DNA from: a phage
Assembly (NCBI GenBank): GCA_024572335.1
Contig: GCA_024572335.1_3052.1
DNA length: 64,000 nt
Strand: one strand, 5' to 3'
Below the pieces are notes generated by a model, which had not been told where the DNA came from, searched no databases, and saw only the letters and a list, made by a program, of their open reading frames with translations. Both the position numbers and the translations under genes were made by a program. Of this stretch, positions 3,458 through 18,238 are shown piece after piece. The first letter of the stretch is position 1; each line of letters starts with the position of its first letter.

Positions 3458-3572
3458 ATTTTACCCTTAATTGATTAACCAAGCATTGATAAGCACTAAA
3501 CTATATTGGGAATAAAATTCTGGACCAAAATGAAAAATCATATCATTTATAGTATCCATAATGTAATTCAGT

Positions 3573-4043
3573 TTAATCATGTTTCCACACCCCATCGGTA
3601 TTTGACCAAAGTCGCTGATTATCTGATCCTCGCCACAGCTTTTTGGTCGGAAGATTTTTCTCATACTTCCCATCAATAATAACATCAACATATTTAAGCA
3701 TTTCTAGTTGTTTAATATCTTCAAACTTATATCCTGTCCACAACCAAATGCTTTTATTGGGATAAAGATTTTTAACTGTTTGAACGATGCAATGAATCAC
3801 GTCTCTGTTATCAGGATAAAGAGGGTCACCTCCGGTTATAGTTAATCCTTCTATATAATCATTATTCAAACATTCAATTAATTGTTCTAGTGTTTCACCA
3901 GTGAATGGAATACCATTTCTAGCATTCCATGTTGATTTATTATAACACCCTTCACATTTATGCAAACAACCTGTAACGAAAAGAACGGTCCTGCAGCCAG
4001 GACCATTAACAAAATCGCAAGGATAAAATCTATCATAATTCAT
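3573..4043 (-). CDS. nrdG: anaerobic ribonucleotide reductase activating protein (radical SAM)
   Basis: 156 aa; CxxxCxxC cluster motif (CLHKCEGC); ATGA overlap with nrdD stop. Confidence 0.9.
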   Translation of the reverse strand: MNYDRFYPCDFVNGPGCRTVLFVTGCLHKCEGCYNKSTWNARNGIPFTGETLEQLIECLNNDYIEGLTITGGDPLYPDNRDVIHCIVQTVKNLYPNKSIWLWTGYKFEDIKQLEMLKYVDVIIDGKYEKNLPTKKLWRGSDNQRLWSNTDGVWKHD

Positions 4044-12138: not shown

Positions 12139-12539
12139 TTTTCAATTTTACTAAATACACAGAATATGATGGAAAAGACTATATAAGCACCGCATACAGA
12201 TTGAACTAATACCATTCCAAAGAACCAAACAATATTATCAAACAATGTCTGTTTTACGTCGAAAGGACGTAAACTTACAGTAATATTATCGCCTTTTTCT
12301 ATTGATGAATACATCTCTGGTGAAATATATTCACTAAATCTATAACCGTCTTTGAGTTCATATACGGCAATAAACGATAAACTAGACCCCTTTCCTTGAG
12401 TTCCTGTAAGGGTATTAACTACAGTAACATCATAATCTTTATAATGCATATAATCATTAATTGCGTAATAACCATATGCAATTACTACACATAAACAACA
12501 TATCAATAAATTCAATCTTTTAATTATCAACTGTTTCAT
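12135..12539 (-). CDS. membrane protein (134 aa, N- and C-terminal TM helices)
   Basis: hydrophobic segments LNLLICCLCVVIAYGYYAI and IVWFFGMVLVQSVCGAYIVFSIIFCVF; preceded by TGGTATAAT extended -10. Confidence 0.5.
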   Translation of the reverse strand: MKQLIIKRLNLLICCLCVVIAYGYYAINDYMHYKDYDVTVVNTLTGTQGKGSSLSFIAVYELKDGYRFSEYISPEMYSSIEKGDNITVSLRPFDVKQTLFDNIVWFFGMVLVQSVCGAYIVFSIIFCVFSKIEN

Positions 12540-12594
12540 AATAATCTCAATTAAAAGGGCTTAGAACCATTATACCATCCTTGGTATAAAGCGG

Positions 12595-13122
12595 TTATGC
12601 GAGTACCGTCTTTAACCGTTCTTCAAACTTCCGAAGAGTATTTTGGCGTTCAGCTCTTTGCTTTTTGTAAGTTTCAATACGCTCTGAAATGAGAGTGTAT
12701 CGCTCATTTACTGATTCTTTCATAAAATCAGGAATTTCACGAGAAGCTTTAATCTCGTCAAATTTATCAATAACAGCTTGCTCTTCAGCAATTAAGTTAT
12801 CATACATTAAAATATCTTTCTTGATAAACTCAATATCTTCTTGAGTTACACGAGATAATTTAGATGCTTTATCCTTTTTGTACTGTTCGTTAGTATCACG
12901 AGACCAGTGTAATGTACGATTTTTATTCGTGTTCTTGTAAATTTCTACAATACCAATCTCATCGATAATAACGATCCAATTCCAACGGGATTTGTAAATT
13001 TGTCCTCCATCAACAGTGATTTCACCACCGATTGAGACATCATTAAAGAACTTGCTTTGAGCTTCAGATTTAAATTTACCATCGTTATAATTTATCAGGT
13101 TGAAAATATCTTTAGCGTTCAT
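12595..13122 (-). CDS. hypothetical protein with C-terminal coiled coil (175 aa)
   Basis: tail ...ERYTLISERIETYKKQRAERQNTLRKFEERLKTVLA; early promoter 13150-13179 upstream. Confidence 0.5.
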   Translation of the reverse strand: MNAKDIFNLINYNDGKFKSEAQSKFFNDVSIGGEITVDGGQIYKSRWNWIVIIDEIGIVEIYKNTNKNRTLHWSRDTNEQYKKDKASKLSRVTQEDIEFIKKDILMYDNLIAEEQAVIDKFDEIKASREIPDFMKESVNERYTLISERIETYKKQRAERQNTLRKFEERLKTVLA

Positions 13123-13149
13123 TTTTGTTCCTCCGTAGTTGATAGTTGC

Positions 13150-13179
13150 ATAGTACCACAGAGGAACGGTCTTGTAAAC
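13150..13179 (-). promoter_or_regulatory. early promoter
   Basis: GTTTAC (13174-13179) - 18 bp - TACTAT (13150-13155). Confidence 0.55.
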
Positions 13180-13181
13180 AA

Positions 13182-13496
13182 CTAAAAGAAACTTCTTTCA
13201 CAATTTTTTCCACTGAACCAAGCGCTCACTGCTTTCTTAGTCTCAGGAGCAGTGTTATCCATAAACCATTCAAAGGCAGCCTTTTTATGATTCTGGAGGG
13301 CTTCTCGGGCTTTAATCTGCTCACGGTCTATTAACACTAACATATGAGCCTTTCTTGTCACCAAAGGCTTCTTATGATTTTTTGAATACTCCCAATCATT
13401 TGTCCAACGCATTGTCGTTGCGAACTGATGAACCGCGTCTTTAATTTTAGTTTCATAAATTTCACGAGCTTTTGAGTATAACATCTTTACCTCCAT
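13182..13496 (-). CDS. hypothetical protein (104 aa)
   Basis: ORF. Confidence 0.45.
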   Translation of the reverse strand: MEVKMLYSKAREIYETKIKDAVHQFATTMRWTNDWEYSKNHKKPLVTRKAHMLVLIDREQIKAREALQNHKKAAFEWFMDNTAPETKKAVSAWFSGKNCERSFF

Positions 13497-13585: not shown

Positions 13586-14566
13586 TTATTTCAGAAGAGT
13601 AACCTCAGCGATTTCTTCCCAACCGTTTTTGTCGGTCATAATAAAGTCAGCAAGATAAAGCGCAGTACGCAGTGAAACATTGCGTAAACGATTAACATTG
13701 ACTTTCATCCATGATAATGCTTTATAAGTTTCTTCATCAGAAAGACCGCGCTTTTGCATCATGTCAGTTGAAAGAATAACATCTTCAACCCTGACCATAA
13801 TTTCTTCATTAGTGTGAACACCCAAATCCAAATAAACTGAGCGGGACACTAATGCTTGTAAATGCGGAGCAAGTTTAGTACCACGGTCTAATTCGCGGTC
13901 AATGTCAACGTTTGTGATAAAAACAATCGTTCCTTTAAATTCAAACTCACGCTCAATGCCTTTTTCTTCTAAGTAAGAAGATGTGGTGCTCCAGCAGACT
14001 TTACGGGTCTCTCCAGTGTCCAGAGCAGCTTTCAGAAGATTAAGAATGTCCATATCAGAGAAAACATCCACATCATCAATCAAAAGGACAGAATTCTCTT
14101 CACGATTATTCCAAAGCTGTTCATAAAGACCAATACCAGAGATTTTACCATTAATGCTTTTATATTCAATGTATCCAATATCATTTGCTTTATTTAAAGC
14201 TTTATCTAAAGAATACGTTTTACCAATACCCGCCGCACCAGAGATAATTAATGAACGAATGTTTCCGTTAATAATACCATTCGTCATCATTCCCATAACA
14301 TTAAATCTTTTATTAATGCGGGTTTTCATATCTTCATACGATTCTTTAACTTCTTCAACTTTTACACCATCATATGAAATGTCTGATTTATAAACCCAAA
14401 CACCGCGACGTTTACCGTCAATTTCAACAAAAACTTTACCATCTCCTTGTGCATCTACCGGAGCATTATCTGGGAACCATTCGCCTAAGAGCTCAAAAGT
14501 TCCAGAGATTTCTTTACCGAAGTAGATACCCTTATTGATAGTTACAGTTTTCATTTTATTCTCCAA
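13586..14566 (-). CDS. AAA+/P-loop ATPase
   Basis: Walker A GAAGIGKT, Walker B VLLIDDVD, sensor-like TIVFITN; 326 aa. Confidence 0.7.
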   Translation of the reverse strand: MENKMKTVTINKGIYFGKEISGTFELLGEWFPDNAPVDAQGDGKVFVEIDGKRRGVWVYKSDISYDGVKVEEVKESYEDMKTRINKRFNVMGMMTNGIINGNIRSLIISGAAGIGKTYSLDKALNKANDIGYIEYKSINGKISGIGLYEQLWNNREENSVLLIDDVDVFSDMDILNLLKAALDTGETRKVCWSTTSSYLEEKGIEREFEFKGTIVFITNVDIDRELDRGTKLAPHLQALVSRSVYLDLGVHTNEEIMVRVEDVILSTDMMQKRGLSDEETYKALSWMKVNVNRLRNVSLRTALYLADFIMTDKNGWEEIAEVTLLK

Positions 14567-14668: not shown

Positions 14669-15682
14669 TCATTTATAATAACTTCGGTGGTTTTCAAGAT
14701 AAACCCTCTCAAGGAAGTCATCCCAAAAACCCATGTCTACTTTTTGCTGCATACCGTTCTTAGAAGCTTCAATAGATGCTGCTTCTACTTGATCGACCAC
14801 ATCTTCCAAAAACTCTTGAACAGTTTTAAATGGGTGTTTACCCAGCTTCACGTCGAGAATAAATGGAGCGTCTTGAAGTGGATAGACTAAGTCACCAGTT
14901 TTGTAAATTTCCAATAGTTGGAGTCCACCACGACAAGCATGACTCAGAGCTTTCCAGTCAATGCCCTCATTCGCTTCAGCCTTACGAGCACGTTCGCCGT
15001 ATTCAGCATCAAGTTTATTCAAAGACTGCTTAAGCTCAATAAGAGAAAGTGTTGTCTGATATTTACGACCCAACACAGTGTAGAACGTTTGTGGACCGGT
15101 TTTCTCATGATTATGGAATACCCATTCACAAAACTCGTTTTCAGGGAGTCGGTGTTTGATATCTTCTACCTTAGTTCGGCGTAAACGATCTGGAATTCCC
15201 TCTTGGTAATCAACCCACTGGTCAGGGATTTGATTAACTACTTTCAATACATCACGTAATGCGGCCAAACGAGAACCCTTGACACCGTATTTAGAAGCTT
15301 GCTTGCGGACATATCCTAAATAGGATTTCATGTTAGTCGTATAAAAACGAGAACGGTTGTCTTGAATAAACTTCCACACATCAGGCAAATCAGATTTAAC
15401 CACTAGTTCAGGTGGAGTGTGAAGCATATCCAATGCTACAGTTTCACCATCTGCTGCTAATTTAAAGAAATATTTAAGACTGTATAGTTCATGGTCAATA
15501 TCATCTTTAGTGTTTTTAGATGATGTGTTGTTAGTGTTTTTACTCATGTGCTCTTTGACATTTCCGATAAGAATATCGCGGGCAGGAGGAACAAAGATTT
15601 CTTTAAAATCTACATCAGATTCTGGGGTAGAAGTTCCATAAAGATGACTACCAAAATAGCTTTTCATTACTGTTTTCATCAT
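14669..15682 (-). CDS. Pol-beta superfamily nucleotidyltransferase-like protein
   Basis: GSHLYGTSTPESDVDF (hG[GS]x9-13 DxD) minimal NTase motif near N-terminus; 337 aa. Confidence 0.55.
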   Translation of the reverse strand: MMKTVMKSYFGSHLYGTSTPESDVDFKEIFVPPARDILIGNVKEHMSKNTNNTSSKNTKDDIDHELYSLKYFFKLAADGETVALDMLHTPPELVVKSDLPDVWKFIQDNRSRFYTTNMKSYLGYVRKQASKYGVKGSRLAALRDVLKVVNQIPDQWVDYQEGIPDRLRRTKVEDIKHRLPENEFCEWVFHNHEKTGPQTFYTVLGRKYQTTLSLIELKQSLNKLDAEYGERARKAEANEGIDWKALSHACRGGLQLLEIYKTGDLVYPLQDAPFILDVKLGKHPFKTVQEFLEDVVDQVEAASIEASKNGMQQKVDMGFWDDFLERVYLENHRSYYK

Positions 15683-16140
15683 TCAGCCTTATATTCAATA
15701 ACAGGACATACTTTAGCTTTACGAGCTTTTAAAAATTCAACGATAATCGATTTCTTGGGTTGAATAGGAGGTAAACCTTTATTTTTCCTATCAATGTTTT
15801 CTACGTGTAAAGCATAATCCTTTTTCCATTTATAATCTTTATATTTTTCACGCAAATGTGCAGGAATAACAAATGAACCGATAATAAGTAAAACAACCAA
15901 AAGCGCAAGTATAAATGCCGATGGAAGAAGAGCCCATAAACTACCGAAAATAAGCCAACGTTGTAGGCTTTCTGCACAAATAATTGTTAACCCTACGAGT
16001 ATAGCACACCCAAAAATAGAAACGAAAAATGTAGGTATGGCAATAGACCAAAAATATGCGCATAGTGTCTTAGGTCGTTGCCATTCATCGTTAAACAATT
16101 TGAATAATTTATAGTGCCAAGAGTTTTCATTAATAATCAT
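15679..16140 (-). CDS. integral membrane protein (153 aa, about 3 TM)
   Basis: long hydrophobic segments (AIPTFFVSIFGCAILVGLTIICA; LIFGSLWALLPSAFILALLVVLLIIGSFVI). Confidence 0.5.
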   Translation of the reverse strand: MIINENSWHYKLFKLFNDEWQRPKTLCAYFWSIAIPTFFVSIFGCAILVGLTIICAESLQRWLIFGSLWALLPSAFILALLVVLLIIGSFVIPAHLREKYKDYKWKKDYALHVENIDRKNKGLPPIQPKKSIIVEFLKARKAKVCPVIEYKAE

Positions 16141-16142
16141 AA

Positions 16143-16664
16143 TTATCCTTTCATTGAAGGCGTAACGGTTGTTAAATACTTAATCATAGCTTCAGCTTCT
16201 GATTTTGATAGTGAAATTTCTTCACCGTTTTGGCGAATAGAAACAAAATCTGGATGACGATCACCACCAGCTTTTAAAACACACATATAAGTATCAGCTT
16301 CGCCTTCAATATTTGAAATGATTGAAGCAGTTCCACACGAATGTGGTTTTTGATAAATCAATACAGCTTTTCTTCCACCATTTGACTGTTCATAGGCTTT
16401 TAATACATCAAACAAATCAGTTCTTTTATCAATAGCTAAAATGTTATTTTCATCTTCAATGTTAAATCCTTCGGATACTTCATAAAGCGTTACCCATAAA
16501 TCGCCAATATCAATAACAGCATTTACTTTTCCACGGCTTTCAAGAGTATGACAAATTTTCTTGATTTCGTCATAACTCATTTTAATAATATCATCTCCTT
16601 GACTAAGAAAGATGTCATTTTTAAATTCAACACGAATTAAACCACTTCCACTTGAAATAAACAT
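16143..16664 (-). CDS. hypothetical protein, paralog of the 16671-17228 product
   Basis: shared blocks GFNIEDE vs GFNIESE and C-terminal SKSEAEAMIKYLTTVTPSM vs TKDEAIALKTYLDSVIPTM. Confidence 0.5.
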   Translation of the reverse strand: MFISSGSGLIRVEFKNDIFLSQGDDIIKMSYDEIKKICHTLESRGKVNAVIDIGDLWVTLYEVSEGFNIEDENNILAIDKRTDLFDVLKAYEQSNGGRKAVLIYQKPHSCGTASIISNIEGEADTYMCVLKAGGDRHPDFVSIRQNGEEISLSKSEAEAMIKYLTTVTPSMKG

Positions 16665-16670
16665 ATTTCC

Positions 16671-17228
16671 TCACTTTGAAATCATAGTTGGAATAACAGA
16701 ATCAAGATAAGTCTTTAGTGCAATAGCTTCGTCTTTGGTAAATGTGACAATATGTGCTCGAAAATCGTCAATTTGACGAATAGTTAAGACATCTCCTTCT
16801 TCATAACATTTTGATACGTTTAAAACAGTTTCATCATTCTGATTGCAAGCGTTAGTAATAATAGCATTGCAATTTTTAAACCATTTTAAACTATGTTTTC
16901 TTTCATTAGAATAATAAAAATATTTAATCTTATCTATAAAACTATCCCAATGGATAACTGATAAGCATATTGACTCGCTTTCAATATTAAATCCTGGGCA
17001 TGAAGAATAAAAATGAATTTTATGCTCATCATTAATGCTTACAATTTTATCAGTATAAGGATTTTCAATTTTGGTTAAATGAATGATTTCACTAGGCGTA
17101 AAATATAACATGTCATCTTCTTGCGTCAAACGATACATGTTATTTACTTTTTCTATAGCCAATTCACCAAAAAGTGGACTAACTTCTAATACTAATCGTT
17201 TCATATTGATTCTCTTCGACTCGCTCAC
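16671..17228 (-). CDS. hypothetical protein, paralog of the 16143-16664 product
   Basis: see paralog; early promoter at 17364-17393 upstream. Confidence 0.5.
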   Translation of the reverse strand: MSESKRINMKRLVLEVSPLFGELAIEKVNNMYRLTQEDDMLYFTPSEIIHLTKIENPYTDKIVSINDEHKIHFYSSCPGFNIESESICLSVIHWDSFIDKIKYFYYSNERKHSLKWFKNCNAIITNACNQNDETVLNVSKCYEEGDVLTIRQIDDFRAHIVTFTKDEAIALKTYLDSVIPTMISK

Positions 17229-17363
17229 AATTACATACTCCTTTGAATAATATCAATAATGTTGTTCACCAGATTATAGGTAAACAAAGGATAATTATAT
17301 TGAATCATCACATACACAACAAACAAAATTTTCATTCTCTTCTCCTCAGTAGTTGACAAGATT

Positions 17364-17393
17364 ACTATACCATAACCTTGCCAACTTGTAAAC
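17364..17393 (-). promoter_or_regulatory. early promoter
   Basis: GTTTAC (17388-17393) - 18 bp - TATAGT (17364-17369). Confidence 0.5.
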
Positions 17394-17558
17394 CATTAAA
17401 TGACGTTTTCGATAAAATTCTGAAGCTTTGTATGAGCATCAACCATGATTTTCATTTCTTCTTTAGCGAAAGCTGTGCCTCTTTCTCGAGAAGAACATTC
17501 ATAGTCAGAAACTGCGTTAGCATATTCTTCAATTAGTTTCATTAAAAACATCTGCTTT

Positions 17559-17753
17559 TCAGTTTTCATTATTCCACCTAATCATTTCAAGATATTGAAC
17601 TAACTTAGCTTTAGATTTATCCAAATCCTTTTTAGCTGTTTCTATACCGTCGTATGAATATCCTTCACAATGCTCAACCGCTAATTGATATGAATCTATT
17701 TCAATATCACGTGCTAATTTAATGATTTTTTCAAACTGTTCGCGTGTTAGCAT
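17559..17753 (-). CDS. hypothetical small protein (64 aa)
   Basis: ORF; resembles adjacent small ORF (EQFEKIIKLARDIE vs EQADKIKELVASIRKADEE). Confidence 0.4.
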   Translation of the reverse strand: MLTREQFEKIIKLARDIEIDSYQLAVEHCEGYSYDGIETAKKDLDKSKAKLVQYLEMIRWNNEN

Positions 17754-17755
17754 AC

Positions 17756-17959
17756 TTAAACTCTCGTATTATGATCGATAATTTCATCAAGAAACATATC
17801 TAACGCTTCTATAGCATTATCCACTTTAGTTTCAAAGTCTTTAATGCCTTTATTCGAAATACCCGATGAATACCAAGCAAAGTCAATCAGCTCTTCATCT
17901 GCTTTACGAATTGAAGCCACTAATTCCTTGATTTTATCTGCTTGCTCTATACTAATCAT
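17756..17959 (-). CDS. hypothetical small protein (about 67 aa)
   Basis: probable start MISIEQ (ATG 17957-17959, complement), abutting the upstream ORF stop. Confidence 0.4.
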   Translation of the reverse strand: MISIEQADKIKELVASIRKADEELIDFAWYSSGISNKGIKDFETKVDNAIEALDMFLDEIIDHNTRV

Positions 17960-18210: not shown

Positions 18211-18238
18211 AAATGAAAAAAGTCTCCCGAAGGAGACT
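18211..18238 (-). terminator. intrinsic terminator
   Basis: minus-strand AGUCUCC-UUCG-GGAGACU followed by UUUUUCAUUU. Confidence 0.65.

Follow-up and report, generated by a model that had tools for sequence, protein, structure and literature searches.

Anciently diverged MobD.1 (Y05I) paralogues in tandem in a Tequatrovirus: predicted PUR-like repeats and the segment replaced by mobD in T4

The nearest structural parallels to the gene pair considered here lie among the PC4-like proteins that bind single-stranded nucleic acids. A chain running β4-α-β4-α defines a type I PC4-like domain (Janowski and Niessing, PMC7549692), and a lone repeat, being unlikely to fold by itself, pairs with a second one by helix swapping (PMC7549692). 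The two arrangements coexist in Pur-alpha, the only protein known in which a type I domain is joined by one of type II: of its three PUR repeats, I and II form an intramolecular domain, while III forms a dimerisation domain (PMC7549692). The Whirly proteins, MRP1-MRP2 and ChmC are of type I, form tetramers and bind ssDNA or RNA through basic residues on their sheets. ChmC, a Whirly-fold protein of jumbo phages, is an RNA binder that needs its lysines and arginines; the RNA contacts of ChmC and MRP1/2 involve lysines and arginines on the sheet, or the phosphate backbone.

In sequence, the closest described system is phage T4 itself, where the genes run mobD.1, mobD and nrdC.11. T4 mobD codes for a free-standing HNH homing endonuclease, whose target site is listed as unknown (PMC2988022), and the mobD.5 transcript is reported as early (PMC1702504). 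The stretch from nrdC.11 to mobD.3 can be deleted in T4 (PMC9825161); the genes are thus dispensable in the laboratory, as expected for accessory early genes. NrdC.11 of T4 has been placed in the RlaP family, whose members attach nucleotides to RNA 3' ends that have been damaged (PMC12776372). For mobD.1, whose product Y05I combines the domains PF24449 and PF24448 and falls in phrog_1502, we found no functional study in the literature under either name, in agreement with the preliminary description, which had left the function of the present pair unassigned.

We analysed a window of 64,000 nucleotides of phage DNA, which is of Tequatrovirus origin: the stretch 15600-17800 matches phages Sa45lw and wV7 at 98-99% identity, and about 500 records match it at 90% or more. 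Two adjacent ORFs of 173 and 185 aa had been described there in advance. Both are present at the given positions, the four peptide blocks quoted from them all occur in the translations, and we add that they lie on the minus strand, so that the 185-aa ORF is the upstream one:

16671-17228, minus strand: mobD.1 orthologue (Y05I family), the upstream ORF; 185 aa with GTG 17228 as the start, 177 aa with ATG 17204
16899-17204, minus strand: N-domain of the mobD.1 orthologue, residues ~9-110
16674-16898, minus strand: C-domain of the mobD.1 orthologue, residues 111-185
16143-16664, minus strand: 173-aa paralogue ('RB32ORF097c' type, hereafter 097c), the downstream ORF
16530-16664, minus strand: predicted repeat I of the 173-aa paralogue, residues 1-45
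16371-16529, minus strand: predicted repeat II of the 173-aa paralogue, residues 46-98
16146-16370, minus strand: C-domain (putative repeat III) of the 173-aa paralogue, residues 99-173

The GTG start of the 185-aa form at 17228 has a strong AAGGAG 9 nt before it (17238-17243, inside mobD.2), which is the ribosome-binding site for mobD.1; the internal ATG at 17204 gives the 177-aa form, and mobD.1-type forms of 177, 181 and 185 aa are all present in the databases.

The two ORFs are members of the MobD.1/Y05I family and paralogues of each other, beyond reasonable doubt. BLASTP aligns them over essentially their full length with 46/176 identities (26%; E=5e-10), and their Smith-Waterman score of 101 stands far above those of shuffled controls (31.0 +/- 5.1, maximum 60; z=13.7, with 0/2000 shuffles reaching the score), a comparison that had been named in advance as capable of refuting the paralogy. 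PF24449 (T4_y05I_N) is recovered at 1e-33 in the 173-aa and 3e-38 in the 185-aa protein (116.2 and 130.8 bits against a gathering cut-off of 24.9), and PF24448 (T4_y05I_C) at 3e-23 and 1e-20, respectively (82.2 and 74.1 bits, cut-off 27). Both proteins match phrog_1502 end to end (1.5e-66 and 1.3e-80), and the pair shows the synteny of the family in T-even phages, with the mobD.2-5 genes on one side and nrdC.11 on the other. A scan of the window's 692 stop-to-stop segments with family HMMs turned up no further copy. T4 MobD.1 has its orthologue in the 185-aa ORF, at ~84-85% identity and, as in T4, with mobD.2 on one flank and the nrdC.11 side on the other. The 173-aa protein shares the two-domain architecture of T4 MobD.1 at 26-29% identity, but it has no counterpart in T4. 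The pair as such is ordinary and already catalogued, being annotated in hundreds of T4-like genomes with both domains in Pfam. Its paralogy, too, is on record, in the RB51 GenBank entry ('RB32ORF097c ... similar to mobD.1'), and the 173-aa-type gene of RB14 is likewise annotated 'similar to mobD.1'. The RefSeq designation 'molybdopterin-guanine dinucleotide biosynthesis protein MobD' appears to be a name-propagation error, no such enzyme domain having been found.

Comparison with T4 shows precisely how the locus differs. In blastn, the window and T4 run colinear as far as 15683 and once more from 16646 on, and the intervening segment has been exchanged:

15684-16645: segment replaced in T4, 962 bp here against the 808-bp mobD (HNH) cassette in T4 (blastn and junction alignment)

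Here, this segment holds a 153-aa membrane-protein gene and the 173-aa paralogue minus its first 6 codons; its T4 counterpart is 12451-13258 of T4 locus L002. T4 retains the ribosome-binding site, the ATG and the first six codons (MFISSG) of the lost paralogue, and this remnant now heads a 23-codon ORF whose TGA overlaps the mobD ATG. This remnant shows that the ORF pair is older than the mobD insertion in the T4 lineage, and that mobD is the invader. The mobD-free arrangement of the window is the commoner one; the mobD cassette is found in 47 phage records. The earlier remark that the pair lies where T4 has mobD is therefore right for the slot of the downstream paralogue, to which the 153-aa membrane-protein gene has to be added, but not for the upstream ORF, which is mobD.1 and is kept in T4. 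While mobD shares this genomic slot, it is unrelated to the pair in sequence and domain content. We also considered the two ORFs as homing endonucleases themselves and ruled this out for want of a nuclease domain: neither protein has an HNH or GIY-YIG match in Pfam at E<=1.

The genes around the pair are closely spaced and run in the same direction. From upstream to downstream on the minus strand, their order is that of RB51: tk, rI.1, rI, rI.-1, mobD.5, mobD.4, mobD.3, mobD.2a, mobD.2, mobD.1, RB32ORF097c, RB32ORF096c, nrdC.11, nrdC.10. The elements next to the pair are as follows:

17364-17392, minus strand: promoter-like site of T4-early type (GTTTACA-N17-TATAGT, TGG before the -10), called by consensus match alone (10/12 with TG)
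17231-17335, minus strand: mobD.2, gene for a 34-aa hydrophobic peptide, immediately upstream, with 2 nt between its stop and the mobD.1 GTG
16668-16672, minus strand: Shine-Dalgarno GAGGA of the 173-aa gene, overlapping the mobD.1 TGA stop (16671-16673)
15679-16140, minus strand: gene for a small membrane protein ('RB32ORF096c'), 153 aa, phrog_944; its stop overlaps the nrdC.11 start
14669-15682, minus strand: nrdC.11, Pol-beta nucleotidyltransferase of the RlaP family (PF10127 RlaP, 3e-11)

The spacer between mobD.1 and the 173-aa gene is 6 nt, and this together with the GAGGA overlapping the mobD.1 stop suggests that the two genes are translationally coupled. The promoter-like site, which is identical in RB51 and T2, is a candidate promoter for the run of genes from mobD.2 to nrdC.11, the pair and the membrane-protein gene included. 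Given this match upstream of mobD.2 and the early transcript of mobD.5 in T4, the genes of the mobD.1 family are probably expressed early.

The neighbourhood recurs beyond Tequatrovirus. In every genus checked, the y05I gene is followed by the membrane-protein gene or a size-matched ORF, in some cases by an extra ORF, and then by the RlaP nucleotidyltransferase. Homologues of the membrane protein with 31-36% identity occupy the same position in Moonvirus and Tegunavirus, while the corresponding place in Gaprivervirus, Mosigvirus and metagenomic contigs is taken by a membrane-protein gene or by an ORF of 150-157 aa that lacks annotation, likened to that protein by size and position. Across the aligned versions, namely those of the window, Moon and fHe-Yen9-01, the C-terminal tail of the membrane protein is conserved and basic, with the signature EF[IL]KA[RK]KxKxCP. 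T4-like phages conserve gene order generally, and the linkage to nrdC.11 therefore counts little as evidence.

Our survey of the phyletic spread points to a family that is narrow, non-essential and restricted to T-even phages of enterobacteria. A profile search of 1.84 billion representatives gave 27 hits at E<=0.001, all from T4-like phages except one, a 1572-aa repeat protein (P0061) that we regard as spurious, its score having accumulated over repeats. Among the BFVD viral models, convincing Foldseek scores came from family members alone. MobD.1-type proteins of all alleles and genera are present in 729 phage records. By tblastn, the 173-aa protein is found with an intact frame at >=80% identity in ~434 phage records (at 100% in phages wV7 and teqhad), and a diverged allele of ~56-60% identity occurs in a few records (T2, P0009). 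T4 and its close relatives lack this paralogue, and Mosigvirus and Gaprivervirus have a single copy of the family gene, a pattern of presence and absence across T-even genomes of the kind that the preliminary description had proposed to look for. Tegunavirus has one C-domain-only gene, and Moonvirus (Citrobacter phage Moon) has two of them in tandem. Natural hybrids of recent origin that join the MobD.1 N-domain to the 097c C-domain are the only copy on 6 Tequatrovirus-like contigs. In one T2 record, both copies and the membrane-protein gene are frameshifted, possibly by sequencing error.

By neighbour-joining, the 097c clade falls outside the whole set of MobD.1 orthologues from Tequatro-, Mosig- and Gaprivervirus, and the split must therefore be old or the copy imported: the pair might go back either to an old duplication with loss elsewhere or to a diverged copy imported beside a resident one. 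Thus, of the tandem duplication and divergence originally proposed, the adjacency of true paralogues stands and duplication is the most economical origin, but the event was not recent and import of a diverged copy is also possible. Both copies look functional: against RB51, dN/dS is 0.17 for 097c and 0.10 for mobD.1, on small counts of 17 and 19 substitutions. The divergence is unevenly spread along MobD.1, with the last ~45 residues near constant between alleles and the N-domain strongly diverged (N-domain dN/dS 0.77 for the window against T4, again on small counts).

We then turned to the fold, using AF2 models built on a 24-sequence alignment (m945b3b9d93ef for the 185-aa and md7b1ce16850a for the 173-aa protein). 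The N-terminal ~100 residues of both proteins are modelled with a pLDDT of ~90 and, by DSSP, have exactly the topology β-β-β-β-α, β-β-β-β-α. Among the structural matches to this predicted N-domain are MRP1/2, Whirly p24/StWhy2, the Borrelia Pur-alpha, repeat III of Pur-alpha, PC4 and the T5 PC4 homologue, and its 3D similarity to solved PC4-like, Whirly and PUR members is significant. We consider it very probable on the strength of these models that the N-domain adopts a PUR/Whirly-like fold. In sequence, no such relationship could be detected: with 24 family members searched at E<=10, the PurA, Whirly, PC4, HTH and nuclease models of Pfam all went unmatched; hhalign gave no significant alignment to human PURA, whether I-II or III (P 0.007-0.75); a profile search of the PDB sequences returned only a chance match (E=0.26); and neither protein had a match in NCBIfam or PADLOC. 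Membership of the Pur-alpha sequence family was rejected on the PurA and hhalign results and on the opposite charge of the proteins.

The C-terminal ~75 residues are modelled as five strands and a long helix at a lower pLDDT of ~47-74 (10-residue blocks; 57-66 in MobD.1). Here, profile comparisons within the family are informative. With hhalign, repeat I matches the C-domain at E=2.3e-5, and the small DUF7189 proteins (54-71 aa), which in other genera are encoded directly upstream of the y05I gene, match the C-domain at E=1e-6 and repeat I at E=2.7e-5, against 0.05-0.7 for reversed-sequence controls. The DUF7189 alignment used here excludes a natural DUF7189::y05I hybrid (P0069), with which the E-value is inflated to 1.8e-11. 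The motif shared in these comparisons is h-h-Q-[ED]-[DN]-D ... h-x-h-[ST]-x-[ED]-[EQ]-h-x-x-L, and the C-domain also occurs stand-alone as proteins of 70-87 aa. These observations indicate that the C-domain is probably a third repeat of the same kind. Repeat II gave no significant hhalign match to repeats I or III, and its relationship to them is suggested by the modelled topology. The low monomer pLDDT of the C-domain fits an obligate dimer, a lone repeat being unlikely to fold, and we lean, by little more than even odds, towards the third repeat as a dimerisation unit.

In their charge, these proteins depart from the nucleic-acid binders they resemble. By charge count, whole proteins of the family have pI 4.2-5.8 and their N-domains pI 4.2-5.6 with a net charge of -3 to -14, as against pI ~9.4 and a net charge of +4 for the human and fly Pur-alpha domains. 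The N-domain strands carry no conserved basic residue; their conserved polar residues are Q, N, D and E (TQEDD, NIExE). In each repeat, a cluster of conserved Q/D/E lies in the equivalent place at strands 3-4 (TQEDD, NIExE and IRQxDD), and acidic clusters are conserved in the hairpins. In the numbering of the 173-aa protein, invariance among basic residues is limited to K89 (helix 2), R144 and K154, with K99 nearly so. A basic nucleic-acid-binding surface of the Pur-alpha kind is thus lacking from Y05I, as judged by charge count rather than from a surface map. Overall acidity is compatible with a local basic groove.

The reading that we favour, at a probability of roughly 0.42 for the whole, is that the two ORFs code for dimeric PUR-like binders of single-stranded nucleic acid. 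They are two anciently diverged MobD.1 (Y05I) paralogues, and each would consist of three β-β-β-β-α repeats as in the PC4/Whirly/PUR group. The first two would make up an intramolecular ('type I') domain like that of Pur-alpha repeats I-II, and the C-terminal repeat would be a single ('type II') repeat that folds only by pairing with a second copy. The products may be homodimers, a MobD.1:097c heterodimer of the sort proposed for Pur-alpha/Pur-beta, or both; MRP1/MRP2 are also analogous. Early in infection, these dimers would bind a single-stranded nucleic acid, RNA being the more likely, and their role might be tied to that of NrdC.11, the RlaP-type nucleotidyltransferase for RNA 3'-end repair, which is apparently part of the same transcription unit. 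In T4, mobD has displaced the downstream paralogue together with the neighbouring membrane-protein gene. The ligand itself, single-stranded nucleic acid and probably RNA, is proposed tentatively and by analogy, because the closest folds are single-strand binders, ChmC binds RNA, and the genes are always followed by a membrane-protein gene (or a small ORF that matches it) and by an RlaP-type NrdC.11, whose relatives repair damaged RNA 3' ends. The points that weigh against this reading are the acidity of the family, the want of a conserved basic residue on the sheet and of sequence similarity to PurA, Whirly or PC4, the low-confidence five-strand C-domain, the dispensability of the genes and the light weight of the nrdC.11 linkage.

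The acidic charge makes a protein-binding role nearly as likely as nucleic-acid binding, and hence a real prospect, if not a probable one. The fold and the dimer would be the same, but the proteins would serve as an acidic scaffold: a decoy, a nucleic-acid mimic or an adaptor for a basic partner, with specificity residing in the variable N-domain and dimerisation in the conserved C-repeat. The partner might be a protein of the host, either one that binds nucleic acids or one of its defences, or else the membrane protein encoded next door, through its basic cytoplasmic tail. This would account for the acidity throughout the family and the Q/D/E clusters at equivalent strand positions, in clear contrast to Pur-alpha, for an N-domain that has diverged between alleles at a high dN/dS (small counts) beside a near-constant MobD.1 C-terminus, and for a membrane-protein gene or size-matched ORF that is always next, with a conserved basic tail where it could be aligned. 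However, the best structural matches are, by a clear margin, nucleic-acid binders; the reading lacks an established partner; mobD.1 persists in T4, where the membrane-protein gene is gone; and a groove of local basic charge would reconcile acidity with a nucleic-acid ligand.

Other accounts fare worse than either a nucleic-acid or a protein ligand for the dimer. The Pfam name of PF24449 and PF24448, 'putative transcription factor', the description of Pur-alpha, Whirly p24 and PC4 as transcription regulators, and the plausibly early timing might suggest DNA-binding factors that retarget the host RNA polymerase or switch phage promoters. We think this improbable: the label is a prediction for which our literature search found no experiment, and probably reflects the PC4-like resemblance; the proteins are acidic with no helix-turn-helix or other duplex-DNA-binding domain found; and genes that are dispensable and variably present in close relatives would be unexpected for a core switch. 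It is less probable still that one copy is a redundant, decaying duplicate without a function of its own. The absence of 097c from T4 and its close relatives, the single-gene hybrids and the frameshifted T2 record could be read in that way, but the 173-aa frame is intact in ~434 records, both dN/dS values are low (0.17 and 0.10), and 26% identity implies maintenance long after the split. Hardly credible, finally, is a chance or compositional similarity, or a pair that belongs to a homing-endonuclease element. Only AT-rich composition and the position beside the T4 mobD site speak for it, against z=13.7 with 0/2000 shuffles, the shared Pfam and PHROG families, the lack of an HNH or GIY-YIG domain, and ORF sequence that was displaced by mobD rather than being part of it.

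What is new in this analysis is, in the first place, the exact boundaries of the mobD replacement and its remnant in T4. The boundaries of the T4 mobD insertion can now be given at base level, and the mobD-free sequence of the window is the natural candidate for the substrate of the endonuclease. New, too, are the three-repeat, PUR-like reading that would link y05I_N, y05I_C and DUF7189, and a testable hypothesis of dimer and ligand for an early T4 gene family without an assigned function. That a small membrane protein and an RlaP enzyme are constant neighbours hints at a possible accessory module with a bearing on host defences that target RNA. A more far-reaching picture, which we consider unlikely to hold in full, is that of an acidic phage version of the Pur-alpha plan, which would have evolved separately out of a single-repeat module still represented by DUF7189 and the C-only genes. 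[quoted passage not shown]

Set beside the described systems, Y05I differs from the Whirly proteins in having no conserved basic residue on the sheet of its N-domain and a C-terminal repeat in the place of the Whirly tetramerisation helix. To the single-repeat PC4-like proteins (the PC4 C-terminal domain, the T5 PC4 homologue, YdbC and Borrelia Bpur) it has no sequence relationship, and most Y05I members are acidic; yet both groups include lone-repeat proteins, which in the Y05I family take the form of the stand-alone C-domain. With Pur-alpha, too, there is no detectable sequence similarity, and the basic character of that protein (pI 9.4) contrasts with the acidity of Y05I (pI 4.2-6). The number of repeats would be the same: there are three in Pur-alpha and, going by topology and the match between repeat I and the C-domain (E=2.3e-5), probably three in Y05I, where the putative third is five-stranded and modelled at low pLDDT.

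Upstream of mobD.1, the 185-aa Y05I-family gene, we found three further small genes, each of which matched Pfam DUF7438 with E-values ranging from 4e-15 to 3e-17:

17396-17569, minus strand, mobD.2a, DUF7438 match
17559-17753, minus strand, mobD.3, DUF7438 match
17756-17959, minus strand, mobD.4, DUF7438 match

These shared domain matches identify them as three more tandem paralogues in the window. Related contigs possess a fourth DUF7438 copy and one more near tk. Thus, the tandem copies here, together with the extra copies in relatives, mark the mobD.1 locus as a string of small duplicated gene families.

The y05I family itself displays a second, domain-minimal tandem pair, judging from the PF24448 (T4_y05I_C) matches of two C-domain-only genes in Citrobacter phage Moon (6e-25 and 2e-6, respectively), which lie directly upstream of a membrane-protein homologue:

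L004 (Moon locus) 3465-3701, y05I C-domain-only gene, 78 aa
L004 3691-3921, y05I C-domain-only gene, 76 aa

The y05I locus also features natural deletion hybrids, namely the database proteins P0011, P0052 and P0069. The first joins the C-domain of 097c (the 173-aa paralogue of mobD.1) to the N-domain of MobD.1 and is the sole copy, being found in six contigs:

L011 3001-3540, hybrid gene (metagenomic contigs L011-L013)

In P0052, the C-terminal half of NrdC.11 is joined to the first 50 residues of MobD.1, while P0069 combines a y05I C-part with the N-terminus of DUF7189, a domain of small related proteins from other genera. Broken copies occur in one record of phage T2 (PV958097.1; locus L003, 1940-3480). 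There, two or three frames are needed to read each of three genes, namely mobD.1, the membrane-protein gene and the 097c-type gene, the last being a 56%-identical allele. These breaks reflect either genuine pseudogenisation of a laboratory strain or errors in sequencing.

In roughly twelve closely related phages, wV7 and RB14 among them, our 2.2-kb query (window bases 15600-17800) matched as two pieces with a span ~430 bp longer, indicating an extra small insert somewhere within the interval; the RB14 record shows an additional ORF, RB14ncORF100c, under its match. In several RefSeq records, including NC_019505 and NC_000866 (mobD.4), the name [quoted passage not shown] is given to the products of mobD.1, mobD.4 and adjacent genes. 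No domain in these proteins backs this name, which looks like a gene-symbol mix-up spread by automatic annotation.

The Shine-Dalgarno sequence of mobD.1, AAGGAG, includes GGAG (17238-17241, minus strand), the motif cut by the T4 endoribonuclease RegB within early mRNAs. By this motif it is a candidate RegB site; the 097c Shine-Dalgarno sequence (GAGGA) lacks it. A hairpin resembling a terminator (18221-18238; AGTCTCC-TTCG-GGAGACT, with a run of T behind it) sits just past rI.-1 and ahead of mobD.5, a placement that fits a candidate transcription-unit boundary upstream of the reported mobD.5 early promoter.

Two larger genes also lie in the window:

13586-14566, minus strand, nrdC.10, predicted AAA/STAND-like ATPase (weak AAA matches under the Pfam gathering cut-offs)
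14669-15682, minus strand, nrdC.11, predicted RlaP-family nucleotidyltransferase

Recent work showed that RlaP-family members extend the 3' ends of damaged RNA by adding nucleotides (PMC12776372).

In T4, where the homing-endonuclease gene mobD replaces 097c and the membrane-protein gene, we detected an ORF lacking annotation:

L002 (T4 NC_000866) 13206-13277, minus strand, 23-codon ORF MFISSGTDMCYKCKAKLNETKNQ

At its 5' end it retains the Shine-Dalgarno sequence, ATG and six codons that belonged to the displaced 097c paralogue, while its TGA stop shares bases with the ATG annotated for mobD (ATGA). From this arrangement, translation of T4 mobD may be coupled to the 097c remnant.
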